Below are positions 1-13,030 of a DNA stretch of 64,000 nt, piece by piece. Source of the stretch: Candidatus Omnitrophota bacterium (lineage in GTDB: Bacteria > Omnitrophota > Gorgyraeia > Duberdicusellales > 4484-171); assembly GCA_041652815.1 (NCBI GenBank), contig JBAZGN010000003.1:129530-193529 (forward strand), in the 5' to 3' direction. How positions within the stretch are numbered: position 1 is the first letter of the stretch; every line of letters starts with the position of its first letter. Made by a program: the position numbers and the translations under genes. The notes under the pieces are model-generated. The model saw only the letters and a list, made by a program, of their open reading frames with translations, had not been told where the DNA came from and ran no database searches.

Positions 1-760
1 TTTTATCAAATCCTTGGGTTTATACACTCTATGCCGTATTTTTTATAATGTTTTTGGTATGAACGATGCACTTATGCATCTTTTTATGTTTTTGGGAGCA
101 CTTTCAATAATCATTGGCGGTTTTCTGGCCTTAGGGCAAAGCGACATAAAGAGGCTTCTGGGATATTCTTCTATAAGCCAGGTAGGATATATGGTGTTAG
201 GCTTAGGAATTGGCACACCGCTTGCCATAACCGGGGCGCTTTTGCATTTGTTGAATCACTCCGTATTTAAATCCTTGCTATTTTTAAATGCCGGTAGCCT
301 TGAGTATGCAACCGGCACCAGAAATTTAGAAAAACTTGGCGGGTTGCGGACAAAAATGCCAATGACTTCAGCAACGTCATTAGCAGCATCAATGAGCATA
401 TCCGGCATACCGCCTTTTGCCGGTTTTTTTAGCAAGCTATTAATCATAGCTGCCTGCATTGAAAGCGGTTATATCGGTTATGGCATTATAACGATTATTG
501 GCGCGATTCTTACGATTTCCTATATTTTGAAATTTCAAAAATATGTTTTTTTCGGGCAATTGAAAGAAACAAATAAAAATATCCGGGAAGTGCCAATCCT
601 TATGAAATTTTCAATGACTGTTCTTGCATTTATATGTATTTTTGGCGCTACGCTGATGATACCTAAGGTGAAGGATTACTTTTTAAAACCGGCAGTTGAC
701 AGTTTAACTAAGGGCATAAAGTATACCAATTTAGTTTCACAGCAGTTATATGAAAAATAA
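1..760 (+). CDS. NuoN/MrpD-family proton-pumping antiporter subunit; C-terminal part, 5' end outside the window
   Basis: Reading frame is open to position 1. Motif LLGYSSISQVGYMVLGLG matches the NuoL/M/N-MrpD signature. Multi-TM protein followed by MrpE/F/G-like genes. Confidence 0.7.
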   Translation, partial: FIKSLGLYTLCRIFYNVFGMNDALMHLFMFLGALSIIIGGFLALGQSDIKRLLGYSSISQVGYMVLGLGIGTPLAITGALLHLLNHSVFKSLLFLNAGSLEYATGTRNLEKLGGLRTKMPMTSATSLAASMSISGIPPFAGFFSKLLIIAACIESGYIGYGIITIIGAILTISYILKFQKYVFFGQLKETNKNIREVPILMKFSMTVLAFICIFGATLMIPKVKDYFLKPAVDSLTKGIKYTNLVSQQLYEK

Positions 761-1253
761 ATTAGTATTGTTTATTTTCTGTTTTCTTGTTTGGATATTT
801 TTGCGATACTTGCCTAATTGGCAGACAGATTGGCAAAGCCTCTTAGTTGGAGCTGTTGTAGCTTTTGTTGTAACCGCACTCTACGGCGACTTGTTCACGG
901 GACGGCCGGCATTATTCCTGGAATATAAACGCTACCTTTGGTTTATTTATTTTATTGTTTTGTGCACATGGGAATGCCTAAAAATTAATATAGAAATGAC
1001 GATGCGGCTTATCGTAAAAGATATACCAATAAATCCTGCAATTTTAAAATTAAAAACCAACCTAAAAACAGACATCGGCCTGACATGCCTTGCAAATAGC
1101 CTGACACTTACGAAAGGAGCGATAACCATAGATATCGAAAAAGAAAAAGGCTTAATCTATATACACTGGATTGATGTTAAGCGGGCGGGCAAAAATAAAA
1201 TAGAAGAAACTATTGAAAGGTTTGAAAAAATAATTAAAAAAATTTTTGAATAA
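750..1253 (+). CDS. Na+/H+ antiporter subunit E-like (MrpE/MnhE family)
   Basis: Segment LANSLTLTKGAITIDIE...LYIHWIDV resembles the MnhE signature ANSITLTPGT...LYVH. 4-nt overlap with the upstream gene. Confidence 0.6.
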   Translation: MKNKLVLFIFCFLVWIFLRYLPNWQTDWQSLLVGAVVAFVVTALYGDLFTGRPALFLEYKRYLWFIYFIVLCTWECLKINIEMTMRLIVKDIPINPAILKLKTNLKTDIGLTCLANSLTLTKGAITIDIEKEKGLIYIHWIDVKRAGKNKIEETIERFEKIIKKIFE

Positions 1254-1257
1254 TATA

Positions 1258-1626
1258 ATGAAAACACTACATTATATAATAGGGCTTTCGATTTTACTGG
1301 CAATACTTACGGTAATAGCATTTTTCCCCTTGAAAATACTTATTTATCAGCAATTGGACTTTTTATGGCTGCTCAAGCGCGGCATAAGCATTATTCTTTT
1401 ATGTGCGTTTTTTTGCCTTTTCCGTGTCCTTCGCGGGCCGACCTCCGCCGACAGAATAGCCGGAATGGACATGCTTGGAATACTTATAATAGGCATATGC
1501 GCACTTCTTAGCATAAGCACAAAAAGAACATGGTATATGGATATAGGCATTGCCTGGGCGCTGCAGAGTTTTATTTCAACTTTGGCATTTACCAAGTTTT
1601 TGGAGGGTAAAGACTTTGATGAATAA
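1258..1626 (+). CDS. Monovalent cation/H+ antiporter subunit F-like (MrpF)
   Basis: Motif RVLRGPTSADRIAGMDMLGILIIG is the MrpF/PhaF signature. The ORF-track start at 1246 is a TTG; the ATG at 1258 is more plausible. Confidence 0.6.
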   Translation: MKTLHYIIGLSILLAILTVIAFFPLKILIYQQLDFLWLLKRGISIILLCAFFCLFRVLRGPTSADRIAGMDMLGILIIGICALLSISTKRTWYMDIGIAWALQSFISTLAFTKFLEGKDFDE

Positions 1627-1933
1627 TATAGCCGGGATAGCTTTGATAATAGCAGGGCTTATATTTGATTTTATAGGCTGCCTGGGCCTGGTAAGGCTTC
1701 CTGATGTATATAACCGGTTGCAAGCATCAACTAAATGTGTAACCTTTGGGACTTGCGCCATTCTCCTTGGAACAGTGTTTATCATAGGATTAAATACTGC
1801 CGGAGTAAAATGTATTTTAACAATTATTTTTTTACTTTTTACATCACCCACAGCATCGCATGCGCTAGCGCGCGCCTGTTGCAAGACAGATGTAAAATTG
1901 TGTAACAAAAGCTTAATCAACGAATACAAATAA
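1619..1933 (+). CDS. Monovalent cation/H+ antiporter subunit G-like (MrpG)
   Basis: Motif RLQASTKCVTFG matches the MnhG signature RLHAxxKxxTxG. The ATG at 1619 overlaps the mrpF stop. Confidence 0.6.
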   Translation: MNNIAGIALIIAGLIFDFIGCLGLVRLPDVYNRLQASTKCVTFGTCAILLGTVFIIGLNTAGVKCILTIIFLLFTSPTASHALARACCKTDVKLCNKSLINEYK

Positions 1934-1936
1934 CTC

Positions 1937-2539
1937 ATGAAATATCCTAAATTAAGAGAGATTAAAGGCGCCTTAAAATCATTTTTCAGCAAGCCGTATA
2001 CGACCAGATTCCCGAAGGAACCGCACATTCCTTTTAGCTCATTTCGCGGAAGGCCTTATTATTACGAAGACAAATGCATTGGCTGTACCGCCTGCGTTAA
2101 TGTCTGCCCTACCAAAGCCTTAAGCTTTACGGATATCACCGATGGCAACACTGCAAAACGAGTTTTAACCATAAACTGGGATGTATGCATCGCCTGCGGG
2201 CAATGCGAGCTTAACTGCGTAAGCGTAGAAGGCATAATGCTCTCTAATGAATTTGATATCGCAACCACCGAACACCGGAGCGTTCTTCGCCAGACAATCG
2301 AGAAAGAAATGATTCTTTGCGAGCATTGCAACTCGGCTTTTGCCTGCCGCGACCATCTAAATTGGACAATAGAAAAACTCGGGCCACTTTATCCGCCGAA
2401 TACAACCCTGCTTACGTTTAACCAAAACGCCCTTGCGCTAAGTGCCGAAACACCCCATAATGAAAGGCTCATCGGCCGGCCTGACCGCTTCAGCGTTCTT
2501 TGCCCGAGGTGCCGTAGAGAAGCAGTTTTCCAATCGTAA
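1937..2539 (+). CDS. NuoI/HycF/MbhN-like 2x[4Fe-4S] ferredoxin subunit with a Cys-rich C-terminal extension
   Basis: Two motifs, CIGCTACVNVCP and CIACGQCELNCV. N-terminal TTRFPKEP...FRGRP resembles NuoI. Extra CxxC and CPRC motifs in the C-terminal half. Confidence 0.65.
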   Translation: MKYPKLREIKGALKSFFSKPYTTRFPKEPHIPFSSFRGRPYYYEDKCIGCTACVNVCPTKALSFTDITDGNTAKRVLTINWDVCIACGQCELNCVSVEGIMLSNEFDIATTEHRSVLRQTIEKEMILCEHCNSAFACRDHLNWTIEKLGPLYPPNTTLLTFNQNALALSAETPHNERLIGRPDRFSVLCPRCRREAVFQS

Positions 2540-2553
2540 ACGGAGTAAAAAAC

Positions 2554-3651
2554 ATGAAATGCCTTGCGTTTGACCTCGGAAAAGTTCTATTCGATTTCGA
2601 CTATGGTATTGCATTAAGAAAAATTGAAACCAAAATAAAAGTACAACCGAAAGAAATAATCAATCAACTTTTCTTTAATGATTTTGCCAAAGACTTCGAG
2701 AAAGGCCTTGTGAGCACGCGCGATTTTTATGAAAAATTCAAAAACGCATTCAAGCTATCATTAACCTATGAAGAATTCATAGATACCTGGTGCGATATCT
2801 TTTCATTAAATAAAGACGTTGCAAGCCTCATAGAAAAGCTAAGCTATATTTATCCTGTTTATCTTATATCGAATATAAACGAGCTTCATTTCGAATACCT
2901 TCATAAAAATTACCCTAATGTATTTTCATTTTTCGACGAACTCATACTTTCATATAAAGTAAAATCATTAAAGCCGGAAAAAGAAATTTACCAGCAGCTT
3001 AAAGATAAAAGTGGCTACAAATATGAAGACATTATTTATGTAGATGACCGGCCGGATCTTATATGTGAAGCAAAAGAACTTAACCTTAAATGCATTAATT
3101 TTACAGGGTTTAACGAATTATTGGCTGAACTTAACCATCATAATATCACAATTCCTACCGAGGAAGAAAAAACAGCGTTTAAAATGCTGAAGAATGAAAT
3201 CTTAAGGCACAAAAAAACACTTATTGTGGGCATAGGAAACACGGATAAGTCTGATGATGGCGTGGGTATATACTTAACAGAAAGAATCAAAAACAAAACC
3301 CATTTAAAAACTATAAACACAGGCCGAATGGTTGAAAATTACTTGGGCAAAATAGCAAAAGAGAAAGCTGATCTTATTATTTTTATTGATTGCGCCACAC
3401 TATCCAGCCCGCAAACATTTGGTTGTTTCAGCCCAAATAGCATCAAAGATTTGCCATTACATTTAACCCATGATGGCTCACTTTCGCGAATTTTCGAATA
3501 CTTGCAAAACGTAAACCGCTCTGATATACTATTCCTTGCCATAAGCGGATTTGATTATTCCTTGGGCCAAAATTTAAGCAAATCTGCCGAAAAACAATTG
3601 CAAATTTTGGGTAATTTTTTTGAAAAACATTTTTCTGCCGATTGTAATTAA
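2554..3651 (+). CDS. Fusion protein: N-terminal HAD-like domain (degenerate motif I) plus C-terminal HycI/HybD-type [NiFe]-hydrogenase maturation endopeptidase
   Basis: C-terminal half has TLIVGIGNTDKSDDGVGIYL (GxGN...DDGxG protease signature). N-terminal half has FDLGKV...YVDDRPD, which is HAD motif-IV-like. Confidence 0.6.
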   Translation: MKCLAFDLGKVLFDFDYGIALRKIETKIKVQPKEIINQLFFNDFAKDFEKGLVSTRDFYEKFKNAFKLSLTYEEFIDTWCDIFSLNKDVASLIEKLSYIYPVYLISNINELHFEYLHKNYPNVFSFFDELILSYKVKSLKPEKEIYQQLKDKSGYKYEDIIYVDDRPDLICEAKELNLKCINFTGFNELLAELNHHNITIPTEEEKTAFKMLKNEILRHKKTLIVGIGNTDKSDDGVGIYLTERIKNKTHLKTINTGRMVENYLGKIAKEKADLIIFIDCATLSSPQTFGCFSPNSIKDLPLHLTHDGSLSRIFEYLQNVNRSDILFLAISGFDYSLGQNLSKSAEKQLQILGNFFEKHFSADCN

Positions 3652-3655
3652 AAAA

Positions 3656-4075
3656 ATGATTTTCCGAAGAAAACCTCGCCAAAGAAACTTCCCTTTTATA
3701 AGAATTATTTATTTAAGCATCATAGTTTGTTCTTTATTTGCGGTTAACGCATGTGTTCCAGTTCTGGTGGGAACAGGTGTAGTTGCAGGATACACCCTAA
3801 GCAATGATTCGGCAATTGGGGAGGTAAAATGCGATTACCGCACTCTTTGGGATGTTTCCATGGATAAATTACAGAATTTAAAACCTAAAATATTGACTTC
3901 AAATGAATCCAAAGGACTGATAAAAGCAACCGTATCCGATAATGACGTAACCATTAAAATAGATACAATAAACTCGTCAATGCAAAAATTAAAAATTTCT
4001 GCGCGTAAATATCTTCTTCCAAAACCGCAATTCGCACAAAAGATTTTCGTTAAAATCGTACAAGACTTAGAGTGA
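3656..4075 (+). CDS. DUF3568-like lipoprotein
   Basis: Signal peptide with lipobox VNAC. The ORF-track start at 3620 overlaps the upstream gene, so the internal ATG is more likely. Confidence 0.45.
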   Translation: MIFRRKPRQRNFPFIRIIYLSIIVCSLFAVNACVPVLVGTGVVAGYTLSNDSAIGEVKCDYRTLWDVSMDKLQNLKPKILTSNESKGLIKATVSDNDVTIKIDTINSSMQKLKISARKYLLPKPQFAQKIFVKIVQDLE

Positions 4076-4860
4076 ATAAATCAAAAATTTTAAACAAAAT
4101 CCTGTCCGGGCTTTTCTTAACCATTTTATGCTCTTGCGTTCCAAGTTATGATTACTCGCACATACGTGTAACTCGGGTAATTGACGGTGATACGGTGAGG
4201 CTTGAGAACGGAGAAACTCTTCGTTACATAGGCATCGACACCCCGGAAATAAAAATAAAACAAAATAACCGCTTTATCTATAATCCGCAGCCCTTTTCGC
4301 TGGAAGCGAAAAGGCTTAACGAAAAACTTGTAAAAAATAAAATAGTACGCATCGAGTTTGACATAGAAAAAACCGATAAATACAAACGATTGCTGGGCTA
4401 CTGTTTTATCGAAAATACATTAGTAAATGCAAAACTGGTAGAAGAAGGCGTTGCTGTTACCTACACAATCCCGCCTAATATAAAATATGTAGATATTTTT
4501 ATAAAATCGCAAAAAAATGCGCGTCAAAACCTGAAAGGAATGTGGGGAGTCTACGAAACTATCACCGCAGATAAAGCAATTAACCATACAAACCAGATAC
4601 GTACTGTAAAAGGAAAAATAGTAAGCGGCCGGCGCACAAAAAACGGTATACTTTTAACTTTGGAGACGAGTCGTGAATCGCCTTTTAAGGTAATGATATT
4701 TAATAATTCTTTGAAATATTTTTATCAAAAAAATATAGACCCTGTTAACTATTATAGAGAAAAGGTAATAGAAGTCAGCGGAAGGATACGCCGTTACAAA
4801 CAAACCGCACAAATAATAGTAAGCTCGCCTGAAGAGATATCAATACGTAATGTGGAATAG
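4072..4860 (+). CDS. Thermonuclease-family (staphylococcal nuclease-like) lipoprotein
   Basis: Motif RVIDGDTVRLENGETLRYIGIDTPE is the SNase signature. N-terminal lipobox LTILCSC. Confidence 0.75.
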   Translation: MNKSKILNKILSGLFLTILCSCVPSYDYSHIRVTRVIDGDTVRLENGETLRYIGIDTPEIKIKQNNRFIYNPQPFSLEAKRLNEKLVKNKIVRIEFDIEKTDKYKRLLGYCFIENTLVNAKLVEEGVAVTYTIPPNIKYVDIFIKSQKNARQNLKGMWGVYETITADKAINHTNQIRTVKGKIVSGRRTKNGILLTLETSRESPFKVMIFNNSLKYFYQKNIDPVNYYREKVIEVSGRIRRYKQTAQIIVSSPEEISIRNVE

Positions 4861-4861
4861 C

Positions 4862-5516
4862 TTGTTAATCTTTCACAAGCTAGGCTGGAGCGTTTTGCTG
4901 CCTGTTCTATTTCTGGCAGGCTGCGTTACTATCTATAATCCTGCCACGTAAAAGCACGAAACTTATTTTATTGATGAAAAAACAGAAATCGCCATAGGAA
5001 AAAATATGACGAAAGAGATTCTGCAAGAAATAAAACCGTAAAAGATGCAAATCTTTCAGAATATGTAAATCGCATCGGAAAGAAAGTCGCCGCCAAAAGC
5101 GACAAGAATAATTTACCGTATTATTTTTATATACTTGATGACAAAAAAATAAATGCCTTTGCTGTACCAGGCGGCTATATTTTTATAAATAAAGGCCTGC
5201 TCGATAAATTAAATGAAGACGAACTTGCATTTGTTCTAGGGCACGAAATAGACCATATCGCTACACGGCATTCGATAAAAAAACTCCAGGTCGCTTTAGG
5301 ATTTAATATACTTACCAGTATAGCGCTGGATAACCCCGATTGCGCATCAACGCAACAGGCAATGGGCATAGCGTTTAACGTTGTATCTTCGGGGTATTCA
5401 CGCCAGGACGAGCTTTTAGCAGACTCGTTGGGGCTAAAATACTTAGCTAATGCAGGCTACATCCATATGCCTCTATAAATGCCTTAAATAGCTTAGAAAA
5501 AGAGGAGGGGGTCTAA
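4862..5516 (+). pseudogene. M48-family metallopeptidase lipoprotein (BepA/YfgC-like), disrupted
   Basis: TTG start with signal peptide and LAGC lipobox. In-frame TAA after ...IYNPAT. At least two -1 frameshifts (after ...LQEIKP and at AGY/DPYA). HEIDH zinc motif and NAFAVPGGYIFIN are still recognisable. Confidence 0.6.
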
Positions 5517-5786
5517 CTTAGGGTTAGTTTTTTTACGGACTCATCCTTTGACACAAGAACGGATTAAGCAACTATAAAAGAAGATCGAAGGTAAAATACC
5601 TTAAAATTTTTCTTAAAAAAATACTTTTTTGTTGTATAATATATAATTCGTAAATAAAAGCAACTACGTTGATTTTCTTATATTTTAATCCCCTTGTTAA
5701 AATTCCATGGGCTGCCGAAGGCTCGCCCATGGATAAATAAAGGAGCGGGACGTTGCCCCAAGGATACACTTGGGGCTCCAGTATAT

Positions 5787-7138: not shown

Positions 7139-9886
7139 ATGGCGAAGAAGTATGTTTATTCTTTTGGAGGAGGCAAGGCCGATGGAAATGAAAGTATGAA
7201 AAATCTTTTGGGCGGCAAAGGTGCAAACCTTGCTGAAATGGCTGGGCACAAAGATTTGCGCTTGCCAGTACCTCCGGGTTTTACCCTAACAACGGAAATT
7301 TGTACATATTATTACGAAAACAAACGTACTTATCCTAAGGGGCTCAAGGAAGATGTAGAGAAAGCTTTAAAAAGAGTAGAAACAATAATGGGCAAACAGT
7401 TTGGAAGCCAAACCAACCCATTGCTTGTATCGGTACGTTCCGGCGCAAGAAAATCAATGCCGGGAATGATGGAAACGGTTTTAAACGTAGGCCTTACCGA
7501 AAAAACCATTCCTGCCTTAATTAAACTAACAAAAAATGAACGCTTTGTATATGATGCATACCGCAGGCTGATTATGATGTATTCTGACGTTGTAATGGAA
7601 AAAGCTGCAGGAATTGAACCCGAAGGTGATGAAGCCGGCATCAGAAAGCAGCTTGAAAAGATAATGGCGGCGATGAAGAAAGAAAGACGCGTTGCTAACG
7701 ATACCGAATTATCTGCTGCCGATCTTAAAAAACTTTGCTCTTTATTTAAAGTCAGGATTAAAGAAGTTCTTAAAAAAGAATTTCCCGATGACCCGGAACA
7801 ACAGTTATGGGGCGGAATTTCTGCGGTATTTCTTTCCTGGAACGGAAAAAGAGCCATATCCTACAGAAGAATCGAAAATATTCCTGATGAATGGGGAACA
7901 GCAGTAAACGTGCAATCAATGGTTTTCGGCAATATGGGAGAGACAAGCGCAACCGGAGTCGCGTTTACCAGAAATCCCGGCAATGGTGAGAACAAGTTCT
8001 ATGGCGAATATCTTATTGACGCGCAGGGAGAAGACGTGGTTGCCGGAATACGCACGCCTGCACCGATAAATGAATATTCAAAGAGCGAACACAACAAGGC
8101 TCTGGTAAGCCTTGAAAAAGGTATGCCAAAAATTTACAAAGAGCTTGTCGACATACGAAACAGGCTTGAAAAGCATTATCGCGATATGCTTGATATAGAA
8201 TTTACTATTGAAAAAGGAATACTTTACATGCTTCAATGCCGCGTAGGAAAACGTAATGGCCCTGCGGCAATAAAGATGGCAGTTGATATGGTCAAGGAAA
8301 AACTTATCGCAAAAGAAGAAGCTGTAATGAGAGTGACGCCTGCGCAATTAGACGAATTACTTCATCCGATAATTGACCCTAAGGAAGAATTAGCAAATAA
8401 GCCTATCGCAAAAGGCCTTCCTGCTGGCCCAGGGGGTGCAGCCGGAATGATTGTTTTTAGCGCAAACGAAGCCGTAAAATGGGCGAAAGAAGGCAAAAAA
8501 GTGGTTCTGGTGCGCGAAGAAACAAACCCTGAAGACGTAGAAGGAATGCGCGCTGCACAGTGTATACTTACGGCAAGAGGCGGTATGACATCGCACGCTG
8601 CTTTAGTTGCCAGAGGATGGGGAAAATGCTGCATAGTTGGCTGCGGCGGCCTGTATGTAGATTACAATGCAAAAACATTAAAAGCAGGTGATAAAACACT
8701 CAAGGAAGGCCAGTGGCTTACCCTAAACGGCACAAAAGGAAACGTTTATGCAGGGCAACTTAGGATGATGGATGCTTCCGAAGAAAATCAACTCCTTTCG
8801 GAATTTTTAAAAATGTGCGACCTATTCAGGCGTTTAAAAATCCGAGCCAATGCTGACACTCCGGATGACGCTCAAAAGGCAAGGTCTTTTGGCGCAGAAG
8901 GCATCGGGCTTTTTAGAACCGAGCATATGTTTTACGGTAAAGGTGCGGAACAGCCGCTCTTTTTGCTACGTAAAATGATAGTTTCAAAAACAAAAGAAGA
9001 AAGGAAACGCGCGCTCAGCGAACTGTTTCCGTTTGCAAAAGCAGATATAAAACAAACCCTTGAAGCCATGAAAGGTTTTCCTGTAACTATACGTTTGTTA
9101 GACCCGCCGCTTCATGAATTTGTACCGCGGGACGAAAAGCAACAACAGGAATTAGCCCAGAGCTTAAGCATAGGAATTGAGGAATTTCGGAAAAGAGCCG
9201 ATGAGTTGCATGAAAACAACCCAATGATGGGCCATCGTGGTGTACGCTTAGGTATAACTTATCCTGAAATAACCGAAATGCAGGTAAGAGCTATCCTTGA
9301 AGCTTCAGCCGAGCTCATCAAATCCGGGGGCAAGGTTGAACCGGAAATCATGGTGCCGGTTGTATGCACCGTAGAAGAGTTAACTGACCAGTTAACTTTA
9401 GTTAAAAAAATCTATGAAGAGGTCCTTAAGAAATATTCCTTAAAAAAAGTACCTTCTATGTTCGGTACAATGATAGAAATCCCGCGCGCAGCATTAACTG
9501 CTGATAAAATAGCACAGGTTGCAGAATTTTTCTCATTTGGAACAAACGACCTTACACAAATGAGCTTTGGATTTTCCAGAGACGATATCGGTGGATTTTT
9601 GCCTGAATATCTAAAAAAAGGCATATTGGCCGATGACCCTTTCCAGACTATCGACCAGGAAGGCGTGGGCCAATTAATTAAGGTAGGCATCGAACGTGGC
9701 AGAAAAACCCGTAAAAATTTAAAAGTCGGTATATGCGGCGAACATGGAGGAGAGCCAAAGTCAGTTGAATTCTGCCACAAAGTCGGGATGAATTATGTAT
9801 CGTGTTCTCCGTTTAGGATACCTATTGCAAGGCTGGCTGCAGCACAGGCGGTTTTAAAAGAAAAAACCAGCAAAAGGAAAAAATAG
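7139..9886 (+). CDS. ppdK: Pyruvate, phosphate dikinase
   Basis: 915 aa with PEP-utilizing enzyme motifs (GGMTSHAALVARGWGKCCIVGC). RBS AAAGGAGG at 7122-7129. Confidence 0.92.
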   Translation: MAKKYVYSFGGGKADGNESMKNLLGGKGANLAEMAGHKDLRLPVPPGFTLTTEICTYYYENKRTYPKGLKEDVEKALKRVETIMGKQFGSQTNPLLVSVRSGARKSMPGMMETVLNVGLTEKTIPALIKLTKNERFVYDAYRRLIMMYSDVVMEKAAGIEPEGDEAGIRKQLEKIMAAMKKERRVANDTELSAADLKKLCSLFKVRIKEVLKKEFPDDPEQQLWGGISAVFLSWNGKRAISYRRIENIPDEWGTAVNVQSMVFGNMGETSATGVAFTRNPGNGENKFYGEYLIDAQGEDVVAGIRTPAPINEYSKSEHNKALVSLEKGMPKIYKELVDIRNRLEKHYRDMLDIEFTIEKGILYMLQCRVGKRNGPAAIKMAVDMVKEKLIAKEEAVMRVTPAQLDELLHPIIDPKEELANKPIAKGLPAGPGGAAGMIVFSANEAVKWAKEGKKVVLVREETNPEDVEGMRAAQCILTARGGMTSHAALVARGWGKCCIVGCGGLYVDYNAKTLKAGDKTLKEGQWLTLNGTKGNVYAGQLRMMDASEENQLLSEFLKMCDLFRRLKIRANADTPDDAQKARSFGAEGIGLFRTEHMFYGKGAEQPLFLLRKMIVSKTKEERKRALSELFPFAKADIKQTLEAMKGFPVTIRLLDPPLHEFVPRDEKQQQELAQSLSIGIEEFRKRADELHENNPMMGHRGVRLGITYPEITEMQVRAILEASAELIKSGGKVEPEIMVPVVCTVEELTDQLTLVKKIYEEVLKKYSLKKVPSMFGTMIEIPRAALTADKIAQVAEFFSFGTNDLTQMSFGFSRDDIGGFLPEYLKKGILADDPFQTIDQEGVGQLIKVGIERGRKTRKNLKVGICGEHGGEPKSVEFCHKVGMNYVSCSPFRIPIARLAAAQAVLKEKTSKRKK

Positions 9887-12276: not shown

Positions 12277-12310
12277 CTAAATACTACCTTCTTAGGTATT
12301 GCAAAAAACC

Positions 12311-13030
12311 ATGAAAATTACTACCCGCGAGAAAGAAGACGTCGTTATACTTGATTTGGAAGGAAGCATTGATATCAATTCTTCGGATTTCGTAGAAACC
12401 GTAGGATGGGCCCTGGTTACAAAATCCAAGAATATACTGTGTAATTTTGAAGGAATAAACCTAATCGATTATGTCGGTATATCGCTGATTGCGGTTGCTT
12501 ATAAAAACATTCTAAACCATAAAGGCAGAATGAAACTTTGTAACGTGCCTTCTCATGTACAAAAGTTATTTTCAATAGTAGGCCTGGATAAAGTATTTAC
12601 TTACTATGAAAATGAGGACGAAGCCGTAAAAAGCTTTACAGAAGAAGTATTGTTCTCACACATTCTTGAACAGAGGCTTCGCCGGCGGTTTAAACGTATA
12701 CCTTTACATAACATTATCGAGTATAAACAAAAATATTCAACGAAAGATGTTTTCTACAAGGGTAGAATAATCAATTTAAGTGCCATAGGTGTATTTATAG
12801 CCGCAGAGAAAGTATTTTCGATAGGCGAAATACTTACCACGCGCATAGATTTAACCCCTGCGCCAGGAGTCATCGAGGTTGACTCCAAGGTTGTCTGGGA
12901 ATCCGATAACGAAATCCAACCTATGGAATCTCCGGGTATGGGGCTTGAATTTTGCAACATAAGCCCCAAGGTCCAGGAACAAATTATAGATTTTGTAGAA
13001 AAACACCTTACGCATAGCTCTCAGGAGTAA
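12311..13030 (+). CDS. STAS-domain anti-sigma-factor antagonist fused to a C-terminal PilZ domain
   Basis: N-terminal MKITTREKEDVVILDLEGSIDINSS is a SpoIIAA-like STAS fold pattern. C-terminal RRRFKRIPLH...GRIINLSAIGVFIA is PilZ-like (RxxxR...D/NxSxxG). The ORF-track start at 12299 is a TTG. Confidence 0.6.
   Translation: MKITTREKEDVVILDLEGSIDINSSDFVETVGWALVTKSKNILCNFEGINLIDYVGISLIAVAYKNILNHKGRMKLCNVPSHVQKLFSIVGLDKVFTYYENEDEAVKSFTEEVLFSHILEQRLRRRFKRIPLHNIIEYKQKYSTKDVFYKGRIINLSAIGVFIAAEKVFSIGEILTTRIDLTPAPGVIEVDSKVVWESDNEIQPMESPGMGLEFCNISPKVQEQIIDFVEKHLTHSSQE

Follow-up and report, generated by a model that had tools for sequence, protein, structure and literature searches.

In the formate hydrogenlyase (FHL) of Escherichia coli, cryo-electron microscopy (cryo-EM) placed a single metal ion, tentatively iron, in a cysteine quartet of the iron-sulfur subunit HycF, within a C-terminal extension that touches HycB near the docking site of the input subunit (PMC9474812). 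E. coli YihX, a member of the HAD superfamily, is a characterised alpha-D-glucose-1-phosphate phosphatase (PMC4251788). Mrp-linked 'Group 4g' [NiFe] hydrogenases have already been reported in metagenome-assembled genomes (MAGs) of Omnitrophota, with Saelkia and Gorgyraea among the genera named (PMC8542988), and a survey of [NiFe] hydrogenase neighbourhoods lists HAD-like genes, without comment, among the recurrent neighbours (PMC12727194). Here we analyse a stretch of 64,000 nucleotides from an uncultivated Candidatus Omnitrophota bacterium (GCA_041652815.1, contig JBAZGN010000003.1, positions 129,530 to 193,529; hereafter the window), in which six closely packed plus-strand genes, according to the open reading frame (ORF) calls, fill positions 1-3651. 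The last of them encodes a protein of 365 residues, HAD::HycI (2554-3651, + strand), in which a YihX-like HAD phosphatase domain precedes a HycI-type [NiFe]-hydrogenase maturation endopeptidase domain. It is a real and conserved architecture of two known enzymes, apparently undescribed, whereas the hydrogenase/Mrp module beside it is of an already known kind. We consider it probable that the window opens on the 3' end of an Mrp-linked, MbhL-type (group 4) membrane-bound [NiFe] hydrogenase operon and that the fusion is bifunctional, its C-terminal half being the endopeptidase of the operon's hydrogenase and its N-terminal half an independent phosphatase.

The fusion ORF starts 14 bases after the preceding ferredoxin gene, behind a GGAG, and its product is identical to NCBI/JGI protein cluster P0001 and to an NCBI entry named 'MAG: hydrogenase maturation protease [Candidatus Omnitrophica bacterium]'. 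An initial annotation, made from the letters of the window, had read the protein as a HAD-like domain joined to a HycI-type endopeptidase, and profile and PDB matches bear this out: residues 1-199 match HAD and YihX, and residues 221-365 match the model TIGR00072 and the Thermococcus kodakarensis HycI structure 5zby. We built an AlphaFold2 model on an alignment of 28 sequences (predicted local distance difference test score, pLDDT, 92; predicted template modelling score, pTM, 0.89), and the same 28 fusions, which extend down to 37% identity, were used to assess conservation. The two domains are separated by a linker (residues 200-220, positions 3151-3213, + strand) that is mostly one helix in the model (203-218 by DSSP) and is the least conserved stretch of the protein (mean pairwise identity 34%); the corresponding values are 54% for the HAD half versus 40% for the HycI half. 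A Foldseek search with the model returned no solved protein that meaningfully covers both halves. No published description of a HAD-HycI fusion turned up in our literature collection, which is incomplete, so that this is absence of evidence only.

The C-terminal half (residues 221-365, positions 3214-3651, + strand) exceeds the cut-off of the NCBIfam superfamily model TIGR00072 (58.4 bits, or 61.1 with the domain alone, against 47.45), matches 5zby (2e-10), and gives target-normalised Foldseek template modelling (TM) scores of 0.83 to 5zby, 0.76 to 2e85/2i8l, and 0.66 to HybD (1cfz). It remains below the thresholds of Pfam HycI (PF01750, 17.5 bits against 23) and of the HycI equivalog TIGR00142 (47-50 bits against 119). 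The profile search that the initial annotation had proposed for the 365-residue protein was thus positive for the superfamily and negative for the two narrower models; by score, the C-terminal half is a member of the TIGR00072 superfamily and not a HycI equivalog. Since the Pfam match is sub-threshold, its assignment as a protease rests on NCBIfam, the PDB matches, and the fold. The glycine- and aspartate-containing motif GIGNTDKSDDGVG occupies residues 226-238, and G228, D234, D235, E261, D279, and H306 are invariant among the 28 fusions, including one (P0055) whose locus, L010, adjoins no hydrogenase. The putative metal ligands are D235 in GNxxxxDDG, D279 in IDCA, and H306 in THD, which we take, by motif position, to be the counterparts of the HycI/HybD ligands Asp/Glu16, Asp62, and His90/93. 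An exhaustive HMMER search with this domain gave 915 homologues, of which the nearest are whole or fragmentary fusions and the next nearest ordinary HycI proteins of ~160 residues; stand-alone homologues are ~30-40% identical to it. Other HycI fusions are found in metagenomes, namely MobB::HycI and HycI::ApbE (P0227, 314 aa; P0165, 490 aa), and the domain is therefore fusion-prone.

The presence of such a protease had led the initial annotation to predict that a [NiFe] large subunit is encoded immediately 5' of the window, and NuoB/NuoD-like hydrogenase subunits were to be sought there. The DNA 5' of the window is supplied by a near-identical contig, found via the MrpE protein (L001; 5 mismatches in 8000 nt), whose position 9252 corresponds to window position 1. 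Its gene order begins with a ShyB/HydB/AsrA-like Fe-S protein, an AsrB/ShyC-like FAD/NAD(P)-binding protein, and a 164-aa HycB/HydN-like polyferredoxin (L001 2077-2571), continues with homologues of NuoH, NuoB, and NuoC and a 395-aa NuoD/[NiFe] large subunit (L001 4367-5554), and ends with a 541-aa antiporter-like subunit, MbhD/E, MnhB, an MrpC/NuoK-like subunit, and a 500-aa MrpD. Both the large subunit and its partners are therefore where they had been expected. The large subunit carries RICGICSSSH near its N-terminus and DPCYCCTER followed by 35 further residues. Its closest solved structure is MbhL of Pyrococcus furiosus (2.2e-87), whose deposited chain stops at the Arg aligned with R360, the Omnitrophota protein being 35 residues longer; the extension is also seen in the relatives L007 and L008. 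Because both Cys motifs and the 35 residues past DPCYCCTER are present, we infer that this is a true [NiFe] enzyme, made as a precursor whose extension calls for a HycI-type protease.

The label of subgroup 4g comes from work on other Omnitrophota (PMC8542988); for the present enzyme, sequence comparison points to MbhL as the closest solved large subunit, together with L1/L2 motifs and complex-I-like partners. The first three genes (L001 147-2571) suggest that electrons enter this Mrp-linked group 4 hydrogenase through an NAD(P)H-linked module, and these genes are conserved at least in L007. HypA, HypC, HypD, HypE, HypF, a HydE-like protein, HydG, Rex, an aldo-keto reductase, and an epimerase were all sought by tblastn in the 64-kb window and none was recovered, which places the maturation genes of this genome outside the window.

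The N-terminal half (residues 1-199, positions 2554-3150, + strand) matches PF00702 (2.4e-8, 35 bits against a cut-off of 26.4), and its closest solved relative is E. coli YihX (2b0c/8pne, 1.6e-17), with Foldseek TM scores of 0.85 to 8pne and 0.80 to BT-2542 (4dcc). The best NCBIfam match is the YihX model PRK09456, at 86.9 bits against a cut-off of 295; given this score and an identity of ~25%, we do not regard the domain as a YihX orthologue, nor can its substrate be inferred from the match. The putative catalytic residues are the nucleophile D7 (in AFDLG), S106, K140, and D164/D165. Among the 28 fusions, no variation is seen at D7, K140, D164, and D165 and hardly any at S106, D7 is likewise invariant among free HAD homologues, and fused and free forms share the same sequence motifs. 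In the initial annotation, motif I (FDLGKV) had been considered degenerate. Gly9 indeed occupies the Asp+2 position, which holds the general acid/base of DxDxT phosphatases, but E. coli YihX also has Gly there and reads FDLGNV in the alignment. Since YihX is an active phosphatase, FDLGKV is a normal motif of the subfamily and not a sign of inactivation, and that claim has to be dropped.

We then consider how the two halves are distributed. Full-length fusions (at least 335 aa) make up 52 protein clusters from independent assemblies, with identities down to 37-38%, and free homologues of the HAD half, ~204 aa long and 50-60% identical to it, are numerous. In a survey of one genome per GTDB species, this HAD gene was present at 79 loci, 23 of which carry the fusion, so that its conservation in relatives, about which the initial annotation had asked, is clear. 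All named carriers are Omnitrophota, save for a few doubtful bin labels. HycF lies upstream of the fusion at 17 of the 23 loci (within 666 nt at 15), and in the upstream DNA of these loci no separate HycI gene was seen at any of the 23. Among loci with a stand-alone HAD gene, the four that reach HycF (L004, L005, L046, L053) all have a free HycI immediately 3' of it. HycI is thus free in some lineages and fused in others, and never both at one locus. At three fusion loci (L028, L054, and, from a separate look-up, L010), hydrogenase genes are absent within 4-6 kb upstream. At two others (L030 and L032), hypA, hypF, hypC, hypD, and hypE and a MazG-like gene separate HycF from the fusion. Both loci have a short hypF gene (L032 1918-2988, L030 1927-3129; 356-400 aa), and in L032 it consists of the Kae1-like carbamoyltransferase only (HypF_C and HypF_C_2), without the acylphosphatase, zinc-finger, and YrdC-like part.

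Where the HAD gene of relatives is free, the genes run HycF, HycI (~165 aa), HypA, a HypC::HydE-like protein, Rex, HydG, aldo-keto reductase, and epimerase, followed by HAD, a lipoprotein, a staphylococcal nuclease (SNase), an M48 peptidase, an aminoacyl-tRNA synthetase, and PPDK. The window mirrors this tail after the fusion, with SNase, an M48 relic, aminoacyl-tRNA synthetase, and PPDK. Lipoprotein and SNase/OB genes follow the fusion at 22 of the 22 loci for which downstream sequence is available, often with overlapping stop and start codons, and the free HAD gene also stands 5' of this pair at most stand-alone loci, many of which have no hydrogenase in reach. One locus (L052 5995-7062) holds a 355-aa decayed fusion with an intact HAD domain, in which the HycI half keeps only the stretches FDILLL and RFFR and has lost GxGN..DDG (hmmsearch 8e-4 over 44 residues). 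This suggests that the HycI half can be dispensed with when it is not needed and that the HAD half cannot.

The genes that precede the fusion in the window belong to the same operon. The window opens within an MrpD-like antiporter subunit, of which it contains the C-terminal 252 residues (2-760, + strand; PF00361, 7e-40), the start lying upstream; the full-length protein in L001 has 500 residues and matches the MrpD model PRK08376 (9.6e-117). It is followed by an MrpE-like subunit of 167 aa (750-1253, +; PF01899, 1.7e-32, 112.7 bits against a cut-off of 27), an MrpF-like subunit of 122 aa (1258-1626, +; PF04066, 4.5e-17), and an MrpG-like subunit of 105 aa (1616-1933, +; PF03334, 8.5e-25; TIGR01300, 90 bits against a cut-off of 63), with MrpE, F, and G all exceeding their Pfam cut-offs. 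The start of MrpF is taken as the ATG at 1258 after the L001 gene call, rather than the TTG at 1246 that begins the longest ORF, and MrpG starts at TTG 1616 or ATG 1619. These matches agree with the initial annotation, which had placed the tail of an Mrp/Mbh-type module at the start of the window. It had also held the order D-E-F-G to be non-canonical. This was mistaken, as D-E-F-G is the canonical Mrp order and L001 shows A(split)-B-C-D-E-F-G. Within the Mrp/NuoI part, the sole departure from the mbh order of Pyrococcus is that the NuoI/HycF gene lies 3' of the Mrp genes, an arrangement common to all Omnitrophota relatives examined. These relatives also have, like L001, the NuoH/B/C/D genes 5' of the Mrp genes, a further difference from the mbh operon.

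This NuoI homologue is of the HycF/HyfH type (200 aa, 1937-2539, + strand), as the initial annotation had proposed. Among solved structures it is closest to E. coli HycF (7z0s_F, 1.9e-18), and its best family match is the formate hydrogenlyase iron-sulfur subunit PRK12387 (4.8e-25), of which it is not an equivalog, since it scores 88 bits against a cut-off of 204. Two [4Fe-4S] motifs are formed by C47/50/53/57 and C84/87/90/94 (Fer4, 1.6e-10). The CEHC (C128/C131) and CPRC (C189/C192) pairs described in the initial annotation are real, but its notion of an unusual, extra Cys-rich half is not upheld. They lie in a HycF-type C-terminal extension (2318-2512, +), and C128, C131, C189, and C192 align one-to-one with C117, C120, C155, and C158 of E. 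coli HycF, the known metal-binding quartet. Because the quartet aligns in this way and is conserved in Omnitrophota orthologues (L004, L030, L032, L022), the Cys-rich tail is a known HycF/HyfH trait.

From these elements a scheme can be proposed for the locus. MrpD-E-F-G would complete an ion-translocating membrane arm, and the two-cluster HycF-type ferredoxin would wire the electron-input subunits encoded upstream of the window, namely the HycB-like polyferredoxin and the ShyB/ShyC-like flavoprotein pair, to the NuoB/NuoD-like catalytic pair, its Cys quartet probably holding one metal ion within the extension, the part that touches HycB in E. coli FHL. After insertion of Fe(CN)2CO and Ni, the HycI domain would recognise the metal-loaded precursor of the large subunit via D235, D279, and H306 and would cut after Arg360 of DPCYCCTER, upon which the last 35 residues would be removed and the active site would close. 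The HAD domain may be a Mg-dependent phosphomonoesterase of the YihX type that forms an aspartyl-phosphate on D7 and takes a sugar-phosphate or a nucleotide as substrate, and it would be functionally tied to the downstream lipoprotein and nuclease genes and not to the hydrogenase. The two genes would have merged in an operon bearing both gene sets, and the join would have been kept wherever the hydrogenase was kept. We favour two independent active sites because of the association of HAD with the lipoprotein/nuclease set, the pattern of fused and free HycI, the decayed fusion of L052, and the contrast in conservation between the two halves.

Several points weigh against this scheme. The pTM of 0.89 predicts a fixed interface between the domains, beyond what a passive tether would give, and would leave room for functional coupling. 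The domains of the fusion are ordered HAD-HycI, but in relatives with separate genes HycI lies ~6 kb 5' of HAD. Fused and free forms are intermingled in a neighbour-joining tree of the HAD domain; one old fusion with subsequent losses and several separate events are both possible histories. The fusion has the status of only protease at the level of the locus, and the activities of both domains are predicted from their sequences. As to the way in which the genes were joined, a deletion between adjacent hycI and HAD genes was considered and rejected, as the order of the domains reverses that of the genes in relatives.

Among the alternatives, the one that fares best makes the HAD domain a participant in [NiFe] maturation and not a passenger, either by hydrolysing carbamoyl phosphate in place of the acylphosphatase missing from truncated HypF, or by docking the protease on its precursor or gating it. 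The rigid two-domain unit predicted by the pTM is in keeping with this, as are the maintenance of the fusion down to 37% identity and its place as the final gene of the hyp block both in L032, where hypF is reduced to its Kae1-like part, and in L030, where it is similarly short. In the published neighbourhood survey, moreover, a HAD-like cluster counts 54 genes, against 951 for the large subunit (PMC12727194). Yet the same HAD protein, 50-60% identical, is free at most Omnitrophota loci, often with no hydrogenase in reach, its motifs are alike whether fused or free, and L052 retains it while the HycI half decays. A truncated HypF is also functional elsewhere without any HAD partner, as in HypF1 of Ralstonia eutropha. 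We therefore regard a role of the HAD domain in maturation as unlikely, and it is kept alive at this low level by the predicted fixed interface and the truncated HypF.

A second alternative is that the HycI-like half is no longer a protease but a structural or regulatory appendage, the hydrogenase being processed by another enzyme or not at all. The sub-threshold scores with Pfam HycI (17.5 against 23 bits) and TIGR00142 (47-50 against 119) could be read in this way, as could the faster evolution of the HycI half relative to the HAD half, the lack of hydrogenase genes within 4-6 kb upstream of the fusions of L010, L028, and L054, and the demonstration by L052 that the domain can decay. However, the HycI family is poorly conserved in general, as the ~30-40% identity of stand-alone homologues illustrates, and the six residues G228, D234, D235, E261, D279, and H306 are invariant across the 28 fusions, the hydrogenase-distant ones included. 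An unneeded domain degenerates visibly, as in L052, and the copy in the window does not; the adjacent large subunit retains its cleavable extension, and the fusion loci show no other HycI. Loss of protease function is in our opinion quite improbable.

Still less probable is that the fusion couples two steps of cofactor maturation on one scaffold, the HAD domain hydrolysing an acyl- or sugar-phosphate for ligand synthesis and the HycI domain performing the final proteolysis. The HAD domain could, for example, serve as a carbamoyl-phosphate phosphatase in place of the function absent from Kae1-only HypF. The rigid predicted unit, the place of the fusion after the hyp genes in L030 and L032, and the truncated HypF are compatible with this, but the evidence does not favour it. 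Finally, an artefact, whether a mis-assembly, a gene-calling error, or a stop codon lost in one genome, has a negligible chance of being correct and was rejected, as three independent assemblies of the population (L001, L002, and the window) share this ORF and full-length fusions recur in 52 clusters from independent assemblies and in 23 species representatives; their linker helix is conserved, and the model is confident and continuous.

Downstream of the fusion, the window encodes a DUF3568-like small protein of 139 aa (3656-4075, + strand; PF12092, 25.5 bits against a cut-off of 23.2) whose N-terminus resembles a lipobox. It is probably a lipoprotein, judging from its ...NAC/VPVLVGTG sequence and the GC motif of its orthologues, and where relatives have the nuclease cluster its gene nearly always lies 3' of HAD. 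A staphylococcal-nuclease-like protein with an OB fold follows with a 4-nt overlap (262 aa, 4072-4860, +; PF00565, 9.5e-21). The otherwise uncalled gap between the nuclease and aminoacyl-tRNA synthetase genes is filled by the relic of an M48 peptidase gene (5038-5562, +), which shares 40% identity with its intact counterpart in L004 and L005 (211-253 aa) and retains HEIDH, but has no start codon and several in-frame stops. In several lineages, although not in the window, a MazG-like gene (~100-116 aa; PF03819, 22 bits, at the cut-off) stands directly 5' of the fusion (L030 5679-5993, L032 5604-5918, L019 5666-5983, L022 5330-5680, L051 5350-5652, L010 9538-9867). Together, the MazG-like, HAD, and nuclease genes hint at a nucleotide-related gene set. 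Further on, the window encodes a 243-aa protein with STAS and PilZ domains (12299-13030, +), and STAS and PilZ genes are also found near the L007 cluster. From 9.9 to 64 kb, the Pfam matches are otherwise to housekeeping genes, including sigma-70, 3-dehydroquinate synthase, ThiC, PFK, biotin carboxylase, isocitrate/isopropylmalate dehydrogenase, an aconitase-family protein, and SecY.

The relatives contain further architectures outside the window. The operons with a free HAD gene have, after HycI and HypA, a 435-aa HypC::HydE-like fusion, whose N-terminal HypC domain begins MCYAIPG (46.9 bits) and precedes a radical-SAM HydE-like part (230 bits), followed by a Rex-like regulator and a bona fide HydG, which scores 463 bits where the cut-off is 312. 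The three genes occupy 4571-8036 in L004 and occur as well in L005, L033-L037, L044, L047, and L079. [FeFe]-type radical-SAM maturases in a [NiFe] operon, one of them fused to a [NiFe] chaperone, may be the more interesting lead, and no description of a HypC-HydE fusion turned up in the literature that we collected. The distant HAD relatives of L068-L073 and L077 (~309-340 aa, 33-39% identical) have a different N-terminal extension beginning MESKRSPYLKHIYVC, with a weak match to thioredoxin-like [2Fe-2S] ferredoxin (23.3 bits against a cut-off of 24.8). As for the doubtful taxonomic labels, many loci, L021, L022, L026, and L028 among them, were deposited as 'uncultured Planctomycetia bacterium' despite clear synteny with Omnitrophota, and L040 and L048 come from a bin named 'Methanosarcinales archaeon'; these bins are probably mislabelled or contaminated.

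If the bifunctional reading is true, it is mainly of interest for annotation and evolution, in that a clade of Omnitrophota hides its hydrogenase protease inside a fusion. Databases label the fusion variously as 'HAD family hydrolase' or 'hydrogenase maturation protease', and since most members have no precomputed HycI match, surveys of maturation genes based on Pfam HycI will miss it. Free genes, fusion, and decayed domain form a natural series on how the compaction of operons makes and dissolves multidomain enzymes. Greater weight would attach to the fusion only if the HAD half were proved to be part of cofactor maturation.

Compared with known systems, the C-terminal half resembles the HycI/HyfK endopeptidases (2e85/2i8l; 5zby) in its predicted fold (TM 0.76-0.83), in GxGN..DDG, and in its putative Asp/Asp/His metal site, and the neighbouring group 4 large subunit ends, like HycE, in DPCxxCxxR and an extension. 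Known HycI proteins, by contrast, are free and have ~150-165 residues, whereas here the domain is the C-terminal half of a 365-residue protein and scores below the Pfam and HycI-equivalog cut-offs. The N-terminal half is similar to E. coli YihX (HAD4) in fold (TM 0.85), in the unusual D-x-G form of motif I, and in motifs II-IV, and differs from it in sequence (~25% identity, 87 bits against an equivalog cut-off of 295) and in being fused to a protease domain. As an analogy, the closest in architecture is soluble epoxide hydrolase, in which an N-terminal HAD class IA phosphatase (TIGR02247, matched here at 3.3e-11) is likewise joined to an unrelated catalytic domain. The two active sites of that enzyme work independently. 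Its C-terminal partner is, however, an alpha/beta epoxide hydrolase, and the Foldseek overlap beyond the HAD domain is meaningless (root-mean-square deviation ~10 A).

The ferredoxin has in common with HycF of E. coli FHL (7z0s chain F) the two [4Fe-4S] clusters indicated by its motifs, the aligned Cys quartet extension, and a HycB-like polyferredoxin in the operon. Unlike E. coli FHL, the operon has as its input a ShyB/ShyC (AsrA/AsrB)-like pair and not FdhF, and a full Mrp arm in place of HycC/HycD. It shares with P. furiosus Mbh (6cfw) a large subunit that is nearest to MbhL (2.2e-87) and Mrp-type subunits encoded in the operon. It departs from mbhA-N of Pyrococcus in its gene order, with nuoH-B-C-D first, then mrpA'..G, then hycF, and in having two large antiporter-like subunits.

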